Part shown: positions 7,082 to 59,646 of the stretch, piece by piece
How the letters are laid out: every line of letters begins with the position of its first letter
Position numbering within the stretch: position 1 is the first letter of the stretch
Source: Candidatus Moranbacteria bacterium UBA2282
GTDB lineage: Bacteria > Patescibacteriota > Minisyncoccia > Moranbacterales > UBA2206
Assembly (NCBI GenBank): GCA_002345745.1
Contig: DDWQ01000011.1
Coordinates: 85,995 to 149,994, forward strand
DNA length: 64,000 nucleotides
Direction of reading: 5' to 3'
Notes under the pieces: generated by a model
Told to the model about the DNA's origin: nothing
Seen by the model: the letters and a program-made list of their open reading frames with translations, nothing else
Databases searched by the model: none
Program-made: the position numbers and the translations under genes

Positions 7082-7684
7082 ATGAAAATAATTACTATTT
7101 CAGGTGTCGACGGCTCAGGAAAATCTACGCAAATTGAGCTTTTGAAAGAATATTTAGAATCGCAAAATAAGCGGGTTTTCTATTTTCACGCCATCGAGTT
7201 CGGTTTGGCTAATAAATTAGCGCGGTTCAAACATAGCTATTGTCTGCTCTGCAAAATCAAATCACCTTCTGCTACCAAAAGTGTCACCCGGGCTAATTGG
7301 CTACAAATCCAATTGCGCAAAATATTTCTAATTATTGATATTTGGCGATTTGATAAATTAGTTAAAAAATTAAACAAAGAAAATTTTGACTATCTTTTAA
7401 GCGATCGTTATTTCTACGATAGTATTATTAATATCAAATATTTATCTGAAACAACTTGGACACCCAGTGTCCAAGTGAAAAAACCAGATGTATCATTTTT
7501 TCTTGATATGAACCCGGAACAAATTATGCAACGCGAAAGAAAGCCAGATCAGGGTCTGGAATATTTACAGAAAAAAACAGCTCTATTCAAAGCTAAAATT
7601 GTTGAATGGAATATGAAAATTATTGATGCCAATCAGTCCAAAGAAGAACTTTTTAACACCATAAAAAATATTCTAGCTTTATAA
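7082..7684 (+). CDS. Thymidylate kinase (Tmk)-family P-loop kinase with an unusual insertion
   Basis: P-loop GVDGSGKST, DRYFYDS (Tmk DRY motif), and FLDMNPEQIMQRER lid-like region. A roughly 40-aa insert follows strand 2. Confidence 0.5.
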   Translation: MKIITISGVDGSGKSTQIELLKEYLESQNKRVFYFHAIEFGLANKLARFKHSYCLLCKIKSPSATKSVTRANWLQIQLRKIFLIIDIWRFDKLVKKLNKENFDYLLSDRYFYDSIINIKYLSETTWTPSVQVKKPDVSFFLDMNPEQIMQRERKPDQGLEYLQKKTALFKAKIVEWNMKIIDANQSKEELFNTIKNILAL

Positions 7685-28832: not shown

Positions 28833-29825
28833 CTACACTTCACTAATTACATCAAATCCCTTGAAGCTTCCGGTAATTGAGAGTCCAATAACCTTTTTTG
28901 CAATTCCCTTTTGCTTGATTTGCAAAGCAGTTTCATTGAGCGTCGCCCCTGACCCAACAGCATCATCAATCAACAGAACATTATCAAATACTCCACGCTC
29001 ATCCACAATAATCGTATTTCTGGCATTCTCAATACGATCACTCAATTTAGTGAGGGTTTTTTGCGGAACAATAATCTCAGTCTTGATTTTGACAATAGAA
29101 ACTCTGCGAACATGCTCATGTAGATTCTTTTCCAATTCTTTCATAAGTTGCACTTCACGTTTCACTGTCGGTGGAATAAATCCAATTCCATCAATTTTAT
29201 ATCTTACAATGAGTTCATCGATTCTTGATTTGACGTCACTTGTCAATTCACGCATCAATTTTTTATCCTGACTCTGTTTGGCATACAAAAGCAATTGTCC
29301 AAGTTTTGTTTTGCCGAATCTTTCAATACTATAAAAATCCAAATAAAAAACCTTATCCAGTCCAACTTTTTCAAATGTAGCTTTGAACTTTTCAATCCCA
29401 TCAATGACACTATTTTTCTTGAATGCATTATATTTTTCTAGAGTTTTGACATATTCAACGGCAGTTTTCTCAACTGACTGATTTGTTCTCCCGCACCAAT
29501 ATTCAAAACCATCCACTCCTTGCTTGCGTTCTCCTGAAGGCGAAATAAAAAGAAAATTTTCTTCTATAATTTTTTTAATATTATCACCAATAATAAAAGG
29601 ACTTTTTTTTGCAAAAAACTCGTCACTAATCATATAAAAAACCTTTGGTGACTTACCAATCTTACTCAGTGTGTTATCAGCAATCAAATTAGCCAACTGT
29701 TTGAAAACAGCTCTTTCGCTAATTAACAAATAATCAACAAGTTCACTAGCCGTTACTTGTTTTTTTGCCTGTATATATTCAACAATTTTTTCTGCAGTAG
29801 TTTTTTTCATAAGTTCATAGTTCAT
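28833..29825 (-). CDS. Winged-helix plus phosphoribosyltransferase (PRTase, type I)-domain protein
   Basis: C-terminal NVLLIDDAVGSGATL PRPP-binding motif. The N-terminal roughly 60 aa are wHTH-like. Confidence 0.6.
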   Translation of the reverse strand: MNYELMKKTTAEKIVEYIQAKKQVTASELVDYLLISERAVFKQLANLIADNTLSKIGKSPKVFYMISDEFFAKKSPFIIGDNIKKIIEENFLFISPSGERKQGVDGFEYWCGRTNQSVEKTAVEYVKTLEKYNAFKKNSVIDGIEKFKATFEKVGLDKVFYLDFYSIERFGKTKLGQLLLYAKQSQDKKLMRELTSDVKSRIDELIVRYKIDGIGFIPPTVKREVQLMKELEKNLHEHVRRVSIVKIKTEIIVPQKTLTKLSDRIENARNTIIVDERGVFDNVLLIDDAVGSGATLNETALQIKQKGIAKKVIGLSITGSFKGFDVISEV

Positions 29826-30010
29826 ACTTAACTATGAACCAATATAACATATTTATATCTTTTGTCAATACCTCAATTTTATGGCTTAATACAGCCCACT
29901 TTACCCAAGCCATCTTTTCCAAAATGGCTGGCGCAGAAAGGCAGGAGAGAAAAATTCGTCGTGGGTGAGATACTAACTTAGGCAAACTTAGGACGGTCCT
30001 AAGGAATATC
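29822..30010. repeat. Copy A of a roughly 185-bp repeated element ending in REP-A
   Basis: Near-identical to 30987..31175. Contains the GCCATcttttccaaaATGGC hairpin and ends gtgggtgagatactaacttaggcaaacttaggacggtcctaagg. Confidence 0.7.
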
Positions 30011-30065: not shown

Positions 30066-30285
30066 GCAGTTGTCAATACCTGAATTTTATGGCTTAAAAT
30101 TAGGATTTTTCTGCTCTTTTCACTGAGGACGATCCTAGAGAATAGCGACGCTTATCCAAGCCATCTTTTCCAAAATGGCTGGTGCAGAAAAGCAGGGGAG
30201 AAAAATTCATCGTGGGTGAGATACTAACTTAGGCAAACTTACTTAGGACTACGAACTTAGGACGGTCCTAAGTAAACTAAGTAAA
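30066..30285. repeat. Diverged copy B of the 185-bp element plus an extended REP-A
   Basis: Shares ttgtcaatacctSaattttatggcttaa and ccaagccatcttttccaaaatggctgg...gtgggtgagatactaacttaggcaaactta with copies A and C. Ends in acttaggactacgaacttaggacggtcctaagtaaactaagtaa. Confidence 0.6.
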
Positions 30286-30286
30286 T

Positions 30287-30916
30287 CTAATCTTCCAAAT
30301 AAAACTTGCTCATTTCTTTTCGCTCTTTCATGCCAACGACTTTTTCCATACAGAAAACACTGTAATCTTCCGCATTTTTGAATTGTCCAAGCACTTCATC
30401 TTTTTGACATCCAATCCCCGATTTTCCCATATATTCTGAGAAACTGCACCATGGATATTTTTCAGCTTTTTCAATGCCATGAATTTGACTATTGCAATTC
30501 ACATACGCCGACATATACAAAAGTAAATCATTTGAATTTATGTGCACAGACTTGAATCTTCCCTGAAATAAAACTCCTGATCGATTATATCTTTTGTTAA
30601 AATACATAGCATAGCCAGTGCCAATCTTTTTCATAAACATCGCAATACCGTTTTCTTTATTCTCTCTTAGAATGAGATGGAAATGATTTTGATTTAAGCA
30701 ATATGACACCACATCAACCAATCTTTCTTCTGGTCTTGGACGAACCTTATCCTCATCTCTCATTTGAATTGGATTTTCAGTATTAAAAAATATCAAAGAC
30801 CTAAGCAGACGGGTATAATCCGTATTCCGCTTGAATATTTGTCTTTTTTCTACTCCACGATTGAAGATATGATAATATTCGCCAATCGTGAAAAATTCTC
30901 TTCGTTGCATAAACAA
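30287..30916 (-). CDS. REP-associated tyrosine transposase (RAYT; IS200/IS605 TnpA-like HuH Y1 enzyme), copy 1
   Basis: EYYHIFNRG, the HuH motif NHFHLIL, and GRFKSVHINSNDLLLYMSAYVNCN (catalytic Tyr region). REP-A palindromes flank it on both sides. Confidence 0.75.
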   Translation of the reverse strand: MFMQRREFFTIGEYYHIFNRGVEKRQIFKRNTDYTRLLRSLIFFNTENPIQMRDEDKVRPRPEERLVDVVSYCLNQNHFHLILRENKENGIAMFMKKIGTGYAMYFNKRYNRSGVLFQGRFKSVHINSNDLLLYMSAYVNCNSQIHGIEKAEKYPWCSFSEYMGKSGIGCQKDEVLGQFKNAEDYSVFCMEKVVGMKERKEMSKFYLED

Positions 30917-30979: not shown

Positions 30980-30986
30980 AATATAG

Positions 30987-31175
30987 TTCATACTTAACTA
31001 TGAACCAATATAACATATTTATATCTTTTGTCAATACCTCAATTTTATGGCTTAATACAGCCCACTTTACCCAAGCCATCTTTTCCAAAATGGCTGGCGC
31101 AGAAAGGCAGGAGAGAAAAATTCGTCGTGGGTGAGATACTAACTTAGGCAAACTTAGGACGGTCCTAGGGAATAG
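30987..31175. repeat. Copy C of the 185-bp element ending in REP-A
   Basis: Near-identical to 29822..30010. Confidence 0.7.
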
Positions 31176-31813: not shown

Positions 31814-31894
31814 TTATCTTGCAATGTTTTTATCAAATCCACGATTAAAAATGTGATAATATTCGCCAATCGCGAAAAATTCTCTTCGTTGCAT
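31814..31894 (-). pseudogene. Duplicated 5' fragment of the RAYT-1 gene (26 codons then a stop)
   Basis: 31836..31963 duplicates 30858..30985. It encodes MQRREFFAIGEYYHIFNRGFDKNIAR*. Confidence 0.6.
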
Positions 31895-31932
31895 AAACAA
31901 ATTCTAGCACAAAGCGCCTTCTATACCTAGAC

Positions 31933-32412
31933 TTACTTAGGCAAACTTAGGACGGTCCTAGGGAATAAAGCGATATTTCCATAGGTTCTAAAAAAGGAAT
32001 ATCCGTACAATTTAGAATTTTTCATAAATCGAGATCCAAGAATGGCTGCTAGTTCATCATTTCGCTCAATTTCACTGATAAAATTGTTAATTTCCTGTGT
32101 TTTTGCCTGATCATCGCCATGCAAAATGATCACATAATCCATTCCATTTTCAAAGCCAAAATTGAAGGCAACCTTGTGAGATCCTCCTAAACCATAATTA
32201 TTATCATTTCTAAAGACATTAAATTTATCATGGCCAATTGTTTTTGTTTTTATCGCATTAATTGCTGAATTTATAGTATCATCCTTGCTTTGATTATCTA
32301 TGATAATCACTTTCTCAATCTTATCCAATAGATTTTCATCAAAACCAGCAATTACCCGCTTTATTTGGATTTCACAATTATAACAAGGAATCGCCACTAA
32401 TATTTTTGACAT
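31933..32412 (-). pseudogene. GT2 glycosyltransferase truncated after about 150 aa by the REP/RAYT-fragment insertion
   Basis: The N-terminus ILVAIPCYNCE...IIIDNQSKDDT...HGDD is a GT2 A-domain. The last 10 codons (FPRTVLSLPK) are a translated REP-A. There are no C-terminal TM helices. Confidence 0.5.
31946..31963. repeat. REP-A copy
   Basis: cttaggacggtcctaggg. Confidence 0.7.
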
Positions 32413-44905: not shown

Positions 44906-44937
44906 AAAAAAAATCGGAGTCGAACTCCGATTTTTTG
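44906..44937 (-). terminator. Rho-independent terminator (bidirectional-capable)
   Basis: aaaaaaaatcggagt-cgaa-actccgatttttt: perfect 13-bp stem with A and T runs on both sides. Confidence 0.75.
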
Positions 44938-48097: not shown

Positions 48098-48187
48098 ATT
48101 TTTTTATTTTAATTTAATTACATTTTTATTATACTCCATCCCTCAAAAATACAAAACGCTTAAACACGCTTTGCCACACATATATTC

Positions 48188-48208
48188 TGTAGGGGTTTCA
48201 CCCCTACA
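48188..48208. repeat. REP-B copy (TGTAGGGGT-TTC-ACCCCTACA), immediately 3' of RAYT-2
   Basis: 9-bp perfect arms with a 3-nt loop. Confidence 0.75.
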
Positions 48209-48210
48209 GA

Positions 48211-48849
48211 TTATTCTTCCAGCAAATATCTTCTCATTTCATTTCTGCGTTGATTTATTTCCTTCGCATTTACATCAACAAATTTACCATAATCACTTTT
48301 ATTCTTAAACTGATTTAGAATTATTTCTGGATTGCATAACTTTTCAACATCATCACCCAAATAGCTTTTCAAACTTGACCTAAATTCTTTTACATCATGA
48401 ATAACATTATTACCATTCACATAAGCTGACAGATGCAATAAATATTCATTACTATTTATATGTATAGCCTTAAATCTTCCTTGAAATAATGAACCATTTC
48501 TTTTATTTCTATGATTAAAATATCCTGTATATCCACCGCCTATGCGTTTCATAAATTCCGATATACCACCATCACTCAACTGCTTTAGTATAAAATGAAA
48601 ATGATTTGGAAGCAGATTGTAGACAATTATTTCCACTAACGCACCATTCTGTAGGGGTTTCACCCCTACATCATTTACTTTACTTTTTATATATAAACTA
48701 ATGATGGGTTCGATTTCATTAAATTCTTTCATTGATTTAAGAAACCTGGCATAATCATATTTATCCAAAAAAATATCTCGCTTCTCCACTCCACGATTAA
48801 ACACGTGATAATATTCGCCATTTACAAATTCAAAAGAAAAGTTTCCCAT
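48211..48849 (-). CDS. REP-associated tyrosine transposase (RAYT), copy 2
   Basis: EYYHVFNRG, PNHFHFILK (HuH), GRFKAIHINSNEYLLHLSAYVNGN. Flanked by REP-B copies, and contains one REP-B in frame. Confidence 0.75.
   Translation of the reverse strand: MGNFSFEFVNGEYYHVFNRGVEKRDIFLDKYDYARFLKSMKEFNEIEPIISLYIKSKVNDVGVKPLQNGALVEIIVYNLLPNHFHFILKQLSDGGISEFMKRIGGGYTGYFNHRNKRNGSLFQGRFKAIHINSNEYLLHLSAYVNGNNVIHDVKEFRSSLKSYLGDDVEKLCNPEIILNQFKNKSDYGKFVDVNAKEINQRRNEMRRYLLEE
48650..48670. repeat. REP-B copy inside the RAYT-2 coding sequence, in frame
   Basis: tgtaggggtttcacccctaca encodes ...VGVKPLQNG... within the protein. Confidence 0.75.
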
Positions 48850-48874
48850 CTTTTTTGTTTTAGTTTTTTATATC

Positions 48875-48895
48875 TGTAGGGGTGAAACCCCTACA
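48875..48895. repeat. REP-B copy (inverted-loop orientation), 5' of RAYT-2
   Basis: tgtaggggtgaaacccctaca. Confidence 0.75.
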
Positions 48896-48934
48896 TTATT
48901 CCACTATTTAAGTTCTACTCCCTGAAGACATATC

Positions 48935-50107
48935 TCAATCATTGATCTTTTCAACTTCATCCTTCCCACAATTTGGACAATGCGATAAATATTTTATTTT
49001 AAACTCCCCACAATGTTTGCATCTTTCTTTTAACTGAAGTCCGCAATTAGGACAAAAGGTGTGTTGCGAATCTAAAGAAAAAGAGCATTTGGGACATTTT
49101 TTATCCTTCAGTCTTCTGATTGCAATTTTTGCAGAACTAAAAACTTTCTTTTGGATATAATAGACAATTCCACCAAAAATCACAATTACGATAATCACGG
49201 AACCATAATAAATTACATACCGCAAAAATGGCACTTCCATAAAGAATTTAAAAATCCTCTCCAACCATTCTTTCGGCAGGATATCATAAAGAAAAACGCC
49301 AACCACCTGCAAAAACAGTATAGCAAATGCTGTCGTTGTTGCGGTTAGAATTATCGTATAGGGACTATTCTTTCTTTTCAATTTAAAATAGAAAAACACG
49401 GAGAATGCGAAAAATGGCAGAACAAATACTAATGTAAGCAAAAATACCTTAAATTTAAGCCAAGCAACTTTATTTAAAAAATAATCTGTTGCTTCTTTGT
49501 GACTCTGCTCAATTGATTTAATAGAATCACTTATTTGGGAAATAAAAATACTTTTTTTGCTTTCCAAGGATTTGGTTTCTTCTTGAATGGCGCTAGCTTT
49601 GGCTCTCGTGCTTGTGATTTCATTTTTGATATTCTCCTTGTTCGCTATTGCCTTTTCACCAGCCATTTTCTCTTGCAAACTCAGATCATATTCTTTGATT
49701 AACTTTTGGATACTGTTTTCCAAGCCCCTAACCTCGCTTTTATTCGATTCTATGCCAGTATTTAATAAAACTATTTCCTGCAATTGCGGCTTTATGCCAT
49801 CATACTTCTCATCTAATCCAAATTTTCTATCGACATCATTGAATGAATTTTGGCAGATCGAATATTTTGTCAGGTTTTTGGGATTATGTATGGAATTCAT
49901 AACACATCCAGATGGAGCAATCGGTTTTTCAGGAATTCTCGCCAAATCAGAAAAAATTGTCTCCCCGACACCAATCACAAAAGTTACCATCACAATTAAG
50001 AGAATATATCCTAATTTTGAAGTTCTTTTTTCACTTATTTCTTCATAAGAATTTTGATCATTTTTGCCAATCTTTTTTTCTAATTGTTTTTCATTTTGCA
50101 GATTCAT
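48935..50107 (-). CDS. Membrane protein with a coiled-coil N-terminal region and a C-terminal double zinc-ribbon
   Basis: CPKCSFSL...CPNCG...CKHCG...CPNCG (four CxxC pairs). 4-5 TM helices. Confidence 0.5.
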   Translation of the reverse strand: MNLQNEKQLEKKIGKNDQNSYEEISEKRTSKLGYILLIVMVTFVIGVGETIFSDLARIPEKPIAPSGCVMNSIHNPKNLTKYSICQNSFNDVDRKFGLDEKYDGIKPQLQEIVLLNTGIESNKSEVRGLENSIQKLIKEYDLSLQEKMAGEKAIANKENIKNEITSTRAKASAIQEETKSLESKKSIFISQISDSIKSIEQSHKEATDYFLNKVAWLKFKVFLLTLVFVLPFFAFSVFFYFKLKRKNSPYTIILTATTTAFAILFLQVVGVFLYDILPKEWLERIFKFFMEVPFLRYVIYYGSVIIVIVIFGGIVYYIQKKVFSSAKIAIRRLKDKKCPKCSFSLDSQHTFCPNCGLQLKERCKHCGEFKIKYLSHCPNCGKDEVEKIND

Positions 50108-50139
50108 TTTTTTATTGCTATTTAATAAATTAGTAATTT

Positions 50140-50160
50140 TGTAGGGGTGAAACCCCTACA
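50140..50160. repeat. REP-B copy
   Basis: tgtaggggtgaaacccctaca. Confidence 0.75.
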
Positions 50161-50181
50161 AAATTATTTCTTGCTTCGATC

Positions 50182-58491: not shown

Positions 58492-59646
58492 CTAGTTCTT
58501 CAAATATTCCAGAGTCTCTTGCGCGCATTTTTCCCAAGAGAATTCTTTTAATTGCTCACGCCCTTTTGCAATCAACTCAATTTGCAGATCTTTAGAAATC
58601 AAAACTTGTTCTATTTGTGTACTGAGTTGTGCTGTATTCTGTGCATCAAAATATAGTGCACCTTCTCCACCAATTTCTCGCAAAGAAGAATTATCCGCTG
58701 TTATCAAAGGCACACCAGCGGCATATGCCTCTAGGATTGTGATGCCAAAGCCCTCATAAAGTGAAGGATAGACAAATACACTAGCCCCCCGAAACAAACA
58801 CCCTACATCGCAAAATTTGAGCCTGCCAGGCATTATGATGTCTTTAGAATAGACGCTATTTCTAGCCTTTTTTTCTATAGATTCCGCGAGCCATGCCTTT
58901 TCTCCCGCTAAAACCAATTTGAGAGCGCAAAAGGAGCTAAGCTCCCAAGCTTGGGAGCTTAGCTCCTTTTGCTTCCGGCTTTTTAATAAGTCAAATGCCT
59001 CAATCAATTTTTCAATATTTTTTCTCGGCTGTAACGCACCAGAATACAAAATATACTCTCCTACTATTCCAAGTTTATTTTTCAATTCTTGCTCTTTGCC
59101 ATGATCACGTGCTTGAGAAAAAACATCTGGACTAAAGCCATGATAGATGACCTGGATTTTATTGGCGTCAATTTCCGGATAAAATTTTATGATGTCATGC
59201 TTGGTCGCCTGTGAAATGGCAATAATTTTGTCTGCCTGCCTAATTGAGTAGTCCGCAAATAAATTTAGTTTGCGTAAATCTTTTGGAGGAAAATATTGTG
59301 GAAAATATTTAAAAGCCAAGTCATGAATAGTCACCACTGTTTTCAAATTTTTTCGACGTAGATATGGCAGAGCCGCCATCGGCATCCACAAAACAGTTGG
59401 TTTTTCTTTCCACACTTCCCATGCAAATCTAATTTGCGTCCACAGGATTGGAAAAGACTTTTGAATAATTTTATAATTTGAAAATTCCGGCGGAGTGAGT
59501 TCCGGATTAAATTTACTTTTGTGATAAATTAAAAACTCGCTCTGTAAATCTAGCTTGCCAAAGTGTTTTAGCAAGTTAAAAATATAGACGCGAGTTCCAT
59601 CAATGCGCTCGTGATCAAGGTCAGCTGCAGAAATTGCAATTTTCAT
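58492..59646 (-). CDS. GT4-family glycosyltransferase carrying an in-frame 46-bp perfect palindrome at the inter-domain linker
   Basis: YPSLYEGFGITILEAYAAGVPLITAD motif. Inserted peptide KELSSQAWELSSF. Confidence 0.8.
   Translation of the reverse strand: MKIAISAADLDHERIDGTRVYIFNLLKHFGKLDLQSEFLIYHKSKFNPELTPPEFSNYKIIQKSFPILWTQIRFAWEVWKEKPTVLWMPMAALPYLRRKNLKTVVTIHDLAFKYFPQYFPPKDLRKLNLFADYSIRQADKIIAISQATKHDIIKFYPEIDANKIQVIYHGFSPDVFSQARDHGKEQELKNKLGIVGEYILYSGALQPRKNIEKLIEAFDLLKSRKQKELSSQAWELSSFCALKLVLAGEKAWLAESIEKKARNSVYSKDIIMPGRLKFCDVGCLFRGASVFVYPSLYEGFGITILEAYAAGVPLITADNSSLREIGGEGALYFDAQNTAQLSTQIEQVLISKDLQIELIAKGREQLKEFSWEKCAQETLEYLKN
58927..58972. repeat. Perfect 46-bp palindrome inside the GT4 CDS
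   Basis: GCAAAAGGAGCTAAGCTCCCAAG|CTTGGGAGCTTAGCTCCTTTTGC. Confidence 0.9.

Follow-up and report, generated by a model that had tools for sequence, protein, structure and literature searches.

The closest described counterparts of the locus reported here are the RAYT/REP systems, in which a REP-associated tyrosine transposase (RAYT) with a single-tyrosine Y1/HUH (histidine–hydrophobic–histidine) fold is paired with short, GC-rich repetitive extragenic palindromes (REPs) that flank its gene on both sides. Examples are E. coli TnpA_REP with its REP/BIME (bacterial interspersed mosaic element) sequences and the REPIN-RAYT pairs of Pseudomonas. Such systems are widespread. Here, we describe a RAYT-like gene, RAYT-2, in a 64-kb stretch of the genome of Candidatus Moranbacteria bacterium UBA2282 (contig DDWQ01000011.1; hereafter, the window), whose palindrome family, REP-B, occurs beside the gene and also in frame within its own coding sequence (CDS). 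Among the close relatives of RAYT-2, such an intragenic cognate hairpin is the rule (67 of 81 genes), not an oddity of one locus.

In E. coli, TnpA_REP requires a mismatch bulge and a single-stranded GTAG in its hairpin (PMC3479197). Y1 transposases of the IS200/IS605 insertion sequences, such as IS608 and ISDra2, recognize subterminal hairpins in single-stranded DNA (ssDNA). In parvoviruses, including adeno-associated virus (AAV), the HUH Rep nuclease nicks beside a hairpin, the hairpin is copied, and either loop orientation can arise (flip/flop). A further group of related elements comprises the GTAG/CGTC REPs found in frame within genes and the Rickettsia palindromic elements (RPEs), both of which are sporadic insertions in unrelated genes (Di Nocera 2013, PMC3733652). 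In the literature that we searched, intragenic REPs are described for other genes, but we found no report of one within a RAYT gene and none of RAYTs in Patescibacteria.

The RAYT-2 locus shares with RAYT/REP systems the Y1/HUH fold, the short GC-rich palindromes on both sides of the gene, a GTAG head, a separate palindrome family for each paralog, and a gene that is probably low-copy and largely syntenic. Other traits set it apart. Hairpins are found within the CDS as well, at two conserved addresses; the stems are perfect, with no bulge and with GTAG base-paired, and most relatives carry a CTTRG head; copies are concentrated at the gene (about three per gene) and appear scarcely dispersed; the protein has a C-terminal helical extension of ~60 amino acids (aa) and scores far below the NCBIfam cutoff for RAYTs; and the host belongs to the Patescibacteria, not the Proteobacteria. 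IS200/IS605 elements likewise have a Y1 enzyme and hairpins at both gene ends, whereas here the ends are identical and perfect, the end hairpin has internal copies, tnpB is absent, and the window gives no sign of multicopy transposition. As with intragenic REPs and RPEs, in-frame palindromes add a short peptide in tolerated regions. Unlike those elements, which are sporadic and lack counterparts in homologs, the palindrome resides in the gene of its presumed cognate enzyme, at a position conserved across a gene family, and covaries with the gene flanks. The random loop orientation seen here fits flip/flop, although the parvoviral hairpins are the ends of linear viral genomes and serve replication.

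A RAYT-like gene with a hairpin in its own coding sequence

RAYT-2 matched the Pfam family Y1_Tnp (PF01797) at 29.1 bits (cutoff 23), and residues H83, H85, Y143 and N147 were invariant in an alignment of 34 sequences. An AlphaFold 2 model of RAYT-2 (34 homologs) had a predicted local distance difference test (pLDDT) score of 79.6, with residues 51–66, which hold the hairpin-encoded peptide, below 50. A Foldseek search of the Protein Data Bank (PDB) with this model placed the complex of E. coli TnpA_REP with a REP hairpin first (4er8_A, E 1e-5, probability 1.0), followed by the IS608 and ISDra2 transposases. Together with the 44% identity to the gene at 30287..30916 (RAYT-1), these matches bear out the sequence-only reading of RAYT-2 as a second RAYT-like paralog. 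Named homologs come from Moranbacteria, Giovannonibacteria and Patescibacteria, and a profile search for the family yielded 1,188 clusters (50% identity) at E<=1e-30 and 11,509 at E<=1e-10. Viral contigs contained no relatives, and those on plasmids were distant. RAYT-2 belongs to a large Patescibacteria clade of predicted RAYT-like Y1/HUH single-strand DNA nucleases.

We searched the window for REP-B with the pattern TGTAGGGGTNNNACCCCTACA, allowing up to two mismatches, and used 100 dinucleotide-preserving shuffles as a control. The palindrome, TGTAGGGGT-NNN-ACCCCTACA, gave exactly four matches, all of them exact, compared with none in the 100 shuffles (0 expected). The palindrome thus flanks the gene and recurs inside the open reading frame (ORF) and near position 50140, as had been noticed from the letters alone. 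The layout is T-GTAG-GGGT...ACCC-CTAC-A, in which the GTAG head is present and base-paired inside a perfect stem. Folded as DNA, all four copies form hairpins (−8.8 to −14.3 kcal/mol, z-scores −3.8 to −7.5). On the gene strand, the loop reads TTC upstream and GAA in the intragenic and downstream copies. Of the flank distances first proposed, the ~25 nt before the start codon was correct, while the downstream core begins 2 nt past the stop codon, not 3. The intragenic copy does preserve the reading frame of an intact 212-aa ORF. Its 21 nt run from the third base of D60 to the second base of Q67 and so encode (D)VGVKPLQ; N68 and G69, previously counted as part of the element, lie outside the palindrome.

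The four addresses considered below are designated U (upstream), I1 and I2 (intragenic) and D (downstream), and their positions in the window are collected in the table. No palindrome occurs at address I2 of RAYT-2. The copy at 50140 lies 1.3 kb upstream of RAYT-2, past the neighboring gene. Read on the minus strand, it resembles an intrinsic terminator for the ABC-2 gene, and its position is kept in a syntenic relative (L108). A promoter scan around RAYT-2 gave fewer matches than shuffled sequence and was uninformative.

Positions of the RAYT-like genes, REP-B copies and hairpin addresses in the 64-kb window
Feature	Position	Strand	Description
RAYT-2	48211..48849	-	212-aa Y1/HUH transposase-like ORF; H83-F-H85, catalytic Y143, N147, H151
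RAYT-1	30287..30916	-	Paralog, 44% identity to RAYT-2; own hairpin family; both intragenic addresses empty
REP-B copies	48188-48208, 48650-48670, 48875-48895, 50140-50160		Located by pattern search
Address U hairpin	48875..48895	none	25 nt before the RAYT-2 ATG; loop TTC on gene strand
Address I1 hairpin	48650..48670	none	CDS nt 180-200; loop between helix alpha1 and the strand leading into HUH
Address I2 (empty in RAYT-2)	48379..48396	-	Residues 152-157 (DVKEFR), between N.N..(V/I)H (IH here) and SS(W/L)
Address D hairpin	48186..48210	none	11-bp stem adjoining the stop codon; loop GAA on gene strand
Dispersed fourth copy	50134..50166	none	15-bp stem between the ABC-2 transporter gene and a zinc-ribbon membrane gene

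Intragenic hairpins are the rule among close relatives

The nearest relatives of RAYT-2 were retrieved via two peptide patterns. Eighty loci from species-representative genomes, along with several metagenome contigs, gave 81 usable Patescibacteria genes at 41–94% identity (individual loci are designated by L numbers). Hairpins were scored if they had a perfect stem of 7 bp or more that included three or more G/C pairs. Address U, 6–60 nt before the start codon, held a perfect hairpin in 65 of the 81 genes, and address D, which in most cases lies no more than 12 nt from the stop codon, did so in 54. Within the CDS, address I1 lies 19–37 codons before the HUH motif and was occupied by a perfect hairpin in 57 genes and a near-perfect one in four more. 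Address I2, occupied in 27 genes, falls exactly between the N.N..VH motif that follows the catalytic helix and the SSW motif, where the hairpin encodes xLGxxxSKx. At least one perfect intragenic hairpin (I1 and/or I2) was present in 67 of the 81 genes, and every relative at 63–94% identity retained a hairpin at I1.

Perfect GC-rich hairpins occurred at 1.49 per kb in the family CDS versus 0.073 per kb in neighboring ORFs. The locus-specific hairpin was found 167 times at 58 genes, compared with 17 times in 362 kb of farther flank. Among eight non-Patescibacteria Y1 relatives from plasmids, we detected no intragenic hairpin matching the flanks.

The sequence-only reading had regarded the intragenic REP as an unusual insertion and had proposed that the palindrome would be coincidental if its peptide were conserved in REP-free homologs. 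The V-G-V-x-P-L-Q segment is indeed conserved (32 homologs, 53–94% identity; variants VAVRPLQ, VAAGPLQ and VGIRSLQ), yet the homologs bear their own matching palindromes at this position. The frequency of intragenic hairpins among the relatives likewise removes the element from the class of unusual insertions.

The nearest loci illustrate the pattern. Five relatives at 72–94% identity (L085, L086, L087, L088 and L136) have the core GTAGGGGT...ACCCCTAC upstream, at codon 59–60, and just past the stop codon. Two more distant ones (L089 and L090, 63%) carry a compensated variant, GTAGCGG...CCGCTAC, at all three sites, and the encoded peptide is altered accordingly. In L087, the intragenic loop is reverse-complemented (TTC), giving the peptide VGVSPLQ. 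A truncated relative (L108/L133/L134) has one mismatch in its intragenic hairpin; its gene lies 95 nt from the contig end and is either a pseudogene or cut by an assembly break.

The arrangement around these genes bears on a different explanation, namely that the locus is an IS200/IS605-type insertion sequence, with U and D as its left-end and right-end hairpins and the internal copies as by-products. The Y1 fold matches the IS608 and ISDra2 TnpA proteins, and the hairpins closely flank the gene. In L087 and L088, moreover, the LCAT-like neighbor is retained but rearranged, with the U–gene–D unit on different sides of it than in the window. We nevertheless consider this origin very improbable. 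U and D are identical perfect stems, differing solely by reverse complementation of the 3-nt loop, rather than distinct imperfect ends; the 64-kb window contains no near-identical gene copies, its two paralogs being 44% identical; synteny with the window is preserved in L108; relatives are lacking in viral contigs and are distant on plasmids; and internal copies of an end hairpin would truncate the moving element.

Larger structures also occur at I1. Seven loci (L001, L003, L041, L059, L073, L074 and L077) have double palindromes of 44–52 nt, each made up of two inverted hairpins in a REPIN-like arrangement, in frame at this address. For several family representatives, the profile match breaks into two at profile positions 63–68, which points to still larger inserts at I1.

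A locus-specific barcode shared by all addresses

The hairpins consist of a conserved outer stem (GTAG...CTAC in the clade of the window gene and CTTRG...CYAAG in 40 of the 81 genes) and four inner base pairs that vary by locus, as does the 3-nt loop. Where a locus had both intragenic and flanking copies, the inner 7 nt were identical between them in 52 of 61 cases, as opposed to 1.9% between different loci. The variable inner pairs and loop act as a locus-specific barcode that changes in concert at all addresses. The head class tracks the protein phylogeny, with the nearest neighbor belonging to the same class in 74% of cases versus 37% expected. A fine-scale example is provided by two 76%-identical paralogs in one genome bin whose hairpins differ by one stem pair. 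The proposal of specific co-evolution between transposase and REP, made initially from two paralogs, is thus supported in the relatives by the concerted barcodes, the agreement of intragenic and flanking copies, and the head class that follows phylogeny.

The reading frame of the intragenic copies is equally regular. Each of the three frames is open, yet the 43 intragenic CTTRG hairpins all use the same one (CTT = Leu), and eight of nine GTAG hairpins are read as GTA = Val. Loops occupied by a hairpin are just 1–3 aa longer than empty ones. Because of this single frame and small difference in loop length, we favor old addresses with turnover of their content over repeated fresh insertion.

The palindrome is a DNA-level feature

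We next separated the constraint on the DNA from that on the encoded peptide by resampling synonymous codons while keeping the protein unchanged. The median longest stem in the resamples was 4.7 bp, compared with 9.5 bp observed, and for 52 of the 80 genes, the observed stem was attained in no more than 1% of the resamples. For RAYT-2, none of 300 resamples attained its 9-bp stem. In five close relatives, five of the six hairpin codons were identical in all, compared with 36% of the remaining codons whose amino acid is conserved. The palindrome is thus a DNA-level feature whose stems extend well past what the peptide requires. A covariation count on 39 I1 hairpins gave 95.8% pairing, with double changes at all 10 pairs; this set had been pre-selected as hairpins, and we rely on the address, resampling and hairpin-density tests, which are unselected.

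These results leave almost no room for a recent accidental REP insertion private to RAYT-2 or a chance palindrome in a conserved peptide. Such an event would agree with the lack of an intragenic palindrome in RAYT-1, which lies in the same window, but it conflicts with the locus-specific hairpins at the same address in 57 of the 81 relatives, with the inability of synonymous resampling to recreate the RAYT-2 stem, and with the excess of identical codons in the hairpin.

We also rejected the idea that the hairpin-encoded peptide is itself a recognition element. Twenty-four of the 81 genes lack a perfect I1 hairpin (four of these have a near-perfect one), the I1-lacking genes that we examined keep matching flank and/or I2 hairpins, and the segment is modeled with a pLDDT below 50.

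A palindrome in DNA could instead be the template of an RNA-level element, that is, an mRNA stem-loop serving as a ribosome pausing site, a processing or stability site, or a protein operator. I1 and I2 lie within the transcript, D adjoins the stop codon in most loci, U sits shortly before the start codon, and the hairpins are stable, at least as folded DNA. In addition, Liang, Rudd and Deutscher are said to have reported in 2015 that a REP adjoining the stop codon lowers translation in E. coli. When G.T pairs were permitted, though, they made up 3.8% of stem pairs, the rest being Watson–Crick. Because this share is so small, unlike that of typical selected RNA helices, we favor a DNA palindrome over a selected RNA helix. 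The loop orientation flips freely among addresses and relatives, the hairpin is also found outside the transcript in either orientation (e.g., at 50140), and there is no Rfam match. An RNA-level role as the primary explanation is accordingly improbable, although it is compatible with the mechanism proposed below and does not exclude it.

Probable turnover of hairpin content at fixed addresses

Several loci preserve what look like intermediate states. The hairpins of L135 (75% identity) are intermediate between those of the window (GGGGT-GAA-ACCCC) and those of L090 (GCGGT-GAG-ACCGC). Its U and I1 copies share the half-changed, mismatched form GGGGT-GAG-ACCGC, while its D copy is completely changed. 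Five other loci (L005, L031, L054, L066 and L072) also have an imperfect state in common between at least two addresses, which in one of these cases appears in both orientations. From one address to another, the loop is oriented at random.

A second type of trace appears when the window is compared with L085. Counted along the gene, the two sequences show no differences from −190 to +99 and hardly any from +268 to +744, whereas 30 differences fall between +100 and +267. This mosaic tract of 170 nt (window 48583-48750, CDS nt 100-267) is centered on the unchanged I1 hairpin. Inside the tract, the window sequence resembles L086, while L085 resembles L108/L088.

A third trace is found in L047 (QIJB01000047.1, gene 1527-2190), where U and I1 carry TGGAAGC, I2 carries TGGAGAC and D carries TGGCGGC. 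With three barcodes in one gene, L047 demonstrates that the content at a fixed address is replaceable by another hairpin family.

Such observations raise the question of whether the addresses are instead filled by recurrent independent insertion, with the tolerated loops as hot spots or preferred targets and the match to the flanks reflecting whichever hairpin family is currently active. Several points are in line with this possibility: the three barcodes of L047, the double palindromes or longer inserts at I1 in some relatives, the 19–37-codon spread of I1-to-HUH distances, and the occurrence of REP-like hairpins in frame in unrelated genes of the window (7454-7476, in a thymidylate kinase gene, and 58927-58972, in that of a GT4 glycosyltransferase). 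In-frame intragenic REPs and RPEs are also known (PMC3733652). The regularities described above nonetheless speak against recurrent insertion. The CTTRG hairpins share a single frame in 43 of 43 cases, whereas the thymidylate kinase copy uses another; I2 is invariably positioned exactly between the VH and SSW motifs; occupied loops exceed empty ones by 1–3 aa, not by 7–8 aa; and the barcodes of close relatives differ by single compensated base pairs, in the same way at all addresses, with the mismatch of L135 identical at U and I1. We consider recurrent insertion unlikely as the general explanation, though less so than the other alternatives.

Proposed mechanism and its weak points

In the sampled close relatives, the positions of the addresses are conserved and the barcode changes in concert, with copies identical inside a locus and different from one locus to the next. 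The explanation that we find probable is a gene-embedded array of cognate ssDNA sites, homogenized by copy-to-copy conversion and tolerated in two flexible loops of the protein. The RAYT-like protein would bind and nick hairpins extruded in single-stranded DNA, by analogy with TnpA_REP and IS608 TnpA. Nick-primed copying from a neighboring copy, through short-patch gene conversion or template switching, would then keep the copies identical, and the same process could perfect and extend stems and flip loops. Intragenic copies may persist because they fall in two surface loops able to tolerate the encoded 7–9 residues. The probable consequence would not be a role for the peptide but regulation in cis of a potentially genotoxic nuclease, by self-binding, by slower translation, or both. 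By analogy, hairpins within the ORF and beside its stop codon could plausibly hinder translation.

A number of observations weigh against this explanation. We infer binding, nicking and autoregulation by analogy, and mobilization is inferred as well. The stems are perfect, lacking both the mismatch bulge and the single-stranded GTAG needed by E. coli TnpA_REP, and recognition may differ. RAYT-2 scores 30.7 bits against the NCBIfam equivalog NF047646 (REP_Tyr_transpos), below its cutoff of 80; RAYT-1, at 25.6 bits, is also below. The mosaic tract between the window and L085 has the appearance expected of a hairpin-initiated conversion tract, but it is a single sequence pair: among 13 pairs in which three hairpin-bounded modules were compared, a clear mosaic was seen in this one alone. 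The differing barcodes of L047 are also compatible with replacement by insertion. Dispersal appears low: relatives have 0.047 copies per kb at distances of more than 150 bp from the gene, and the 64 kb of the window contain just four REP-B copies, none more than 1.3 kb away from RAYT-2. A scan of 241 million metagenome records returned 34 exact REP-B matches, mostly on unrelated GC-rich contigs and six beside homologs, which is too sparse for gauging dispersal. Finally, the peptide signature of the two main hairpin classes occurs in 48 of 82 sampled genes versus 21 of 135 broader family representatives, or about three times more rarely, in a count that is blind to other hairpin classes. Occupancy of the addresses may thus be lower farther from RAYT-2 and may not be general across the whole family.

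More tentatively, the locus could be a self-referential unit. The nuclease would nick its own hairpins, and nick-primed copying would home one barcode of ~20 nt to a fixed set of addresses that includes two loops of its own ORF, such that specificity and substrate are co-inherited and co-diversify. If this reading were true, paralogs would speciate by a one-base-pair change in the barcode, as in L012/L028, and the clade (~1,200 clusters at 50% identity, E<=1e-30) would constitute a natural library of matched HUH-enzyme/ssDNA-hairpin pairs legible in the gene sequence itself, for which occupancy is known in 81 relatives.

Since the presumed substrate resides inside the gene of its enzyme, these loci offer evidence, drawn from sequence alone, of enzyme/repeat co-evolution and homogenization, including a caught intermediate. 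They may also supply hundreds of natural enzyme/hairpin pairs, possibly more, from which a recognition code could be derived for HUH nucleases, enzymes employed in DNA tagging. More broadly, the results indicate that DNA-structure constraints can dictate 7–9 protein residues across a gene family, and they extend RAYT-like biology to the reduced genomes of Patescibacteria, a group of ultra-small bacteria.

RAYT-1 and other palindromes in the window

RAYT-1 is associated with a distinct palindrome, REP-A (ACTTAGGAC-C/G-GTCCTAAGT), which has nine sites in the window, all at 26.4–32.0 kb, including a perfect copy 13 nt past the RAYT-1 stop codon (30255-30273). Each paralog's own palindrome thus clusters around that paralog, in agreement with the earlier proposal of two RAYT/REP pairs with non-cross-matching palindromes. 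That reading had also described RAYT-1 as lacking the I1 loop, a view that the alignment does not sustain: the RAYT-1 loop is shorter by just six residues, and in the multiple alignment DKVRP..RP stands opposite VGVKP..LQ. RAYT-1 DNA contains no palindrome at the I1 position. We considered a decayed REP-A copy in this loop and rejected it, as the best match (11/19) did not exceed that of hairpins from other loci.

Two duplications involve the RAYT-1 region. The gene lies between the copies of a 192-nt direct repeat (29817-30008 and 30983-31174; 99% identical), each of which ends in a REP-A hairpin. A second copy of a 143-nt segment, comprising the upstream hairpin of RAYT-1 and the first ~24 codons of the gene, is found at 31828-31970 with 94% identity and amounts to a truncated 5' gene fragment.

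Two unrelated genes in the window contain REP-like palindromes in frame. The ORF at 7082-7684 (+), a thymidylate kinase (PF02223), includes a perfect hairpin, ACTTGGACACCCAGTGTCCAAGT, with a CTTGG head and a different barcode. It encodes TWTPSVQV in a frame that differs from that of all RAYT-like genes. The GT4 glycosyltransferase ORF at 58492-59646 (−) has a 46-nt perfect double palindrome, REPIN-like, in which two inverted GGAGC-TAA/TTA-GCTCC hairpins are joined by CAAGCTTG and together encode KQKELSSQAWELSSFC. No RAYT-like gene cognate to this barcode was found in the window.

The window has a GC content of 34.5%, and neither tRNA genes nor Rfam families at gathering score were detected in the whole 64 kb. 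Two genes annotated as '23S rRNA intervening sequence' four-helix-bundle proteins (PF05635; 51021-51368 and 40813-41172, both −) lie in a glycosyltransferase/ABC-2 transporter cluster for cell-envelope polysaccharide. An intergenic hairpin at 44908-44936, AAAAAATCGGAGTCGAACTCCGATTTTTT, has a 13-bp stem with A/T runs on both sides and resembles a bidirectional terminator; its core, TCGGAG, is the hairpin class found at the RAYT-like genes of L022 and L029.

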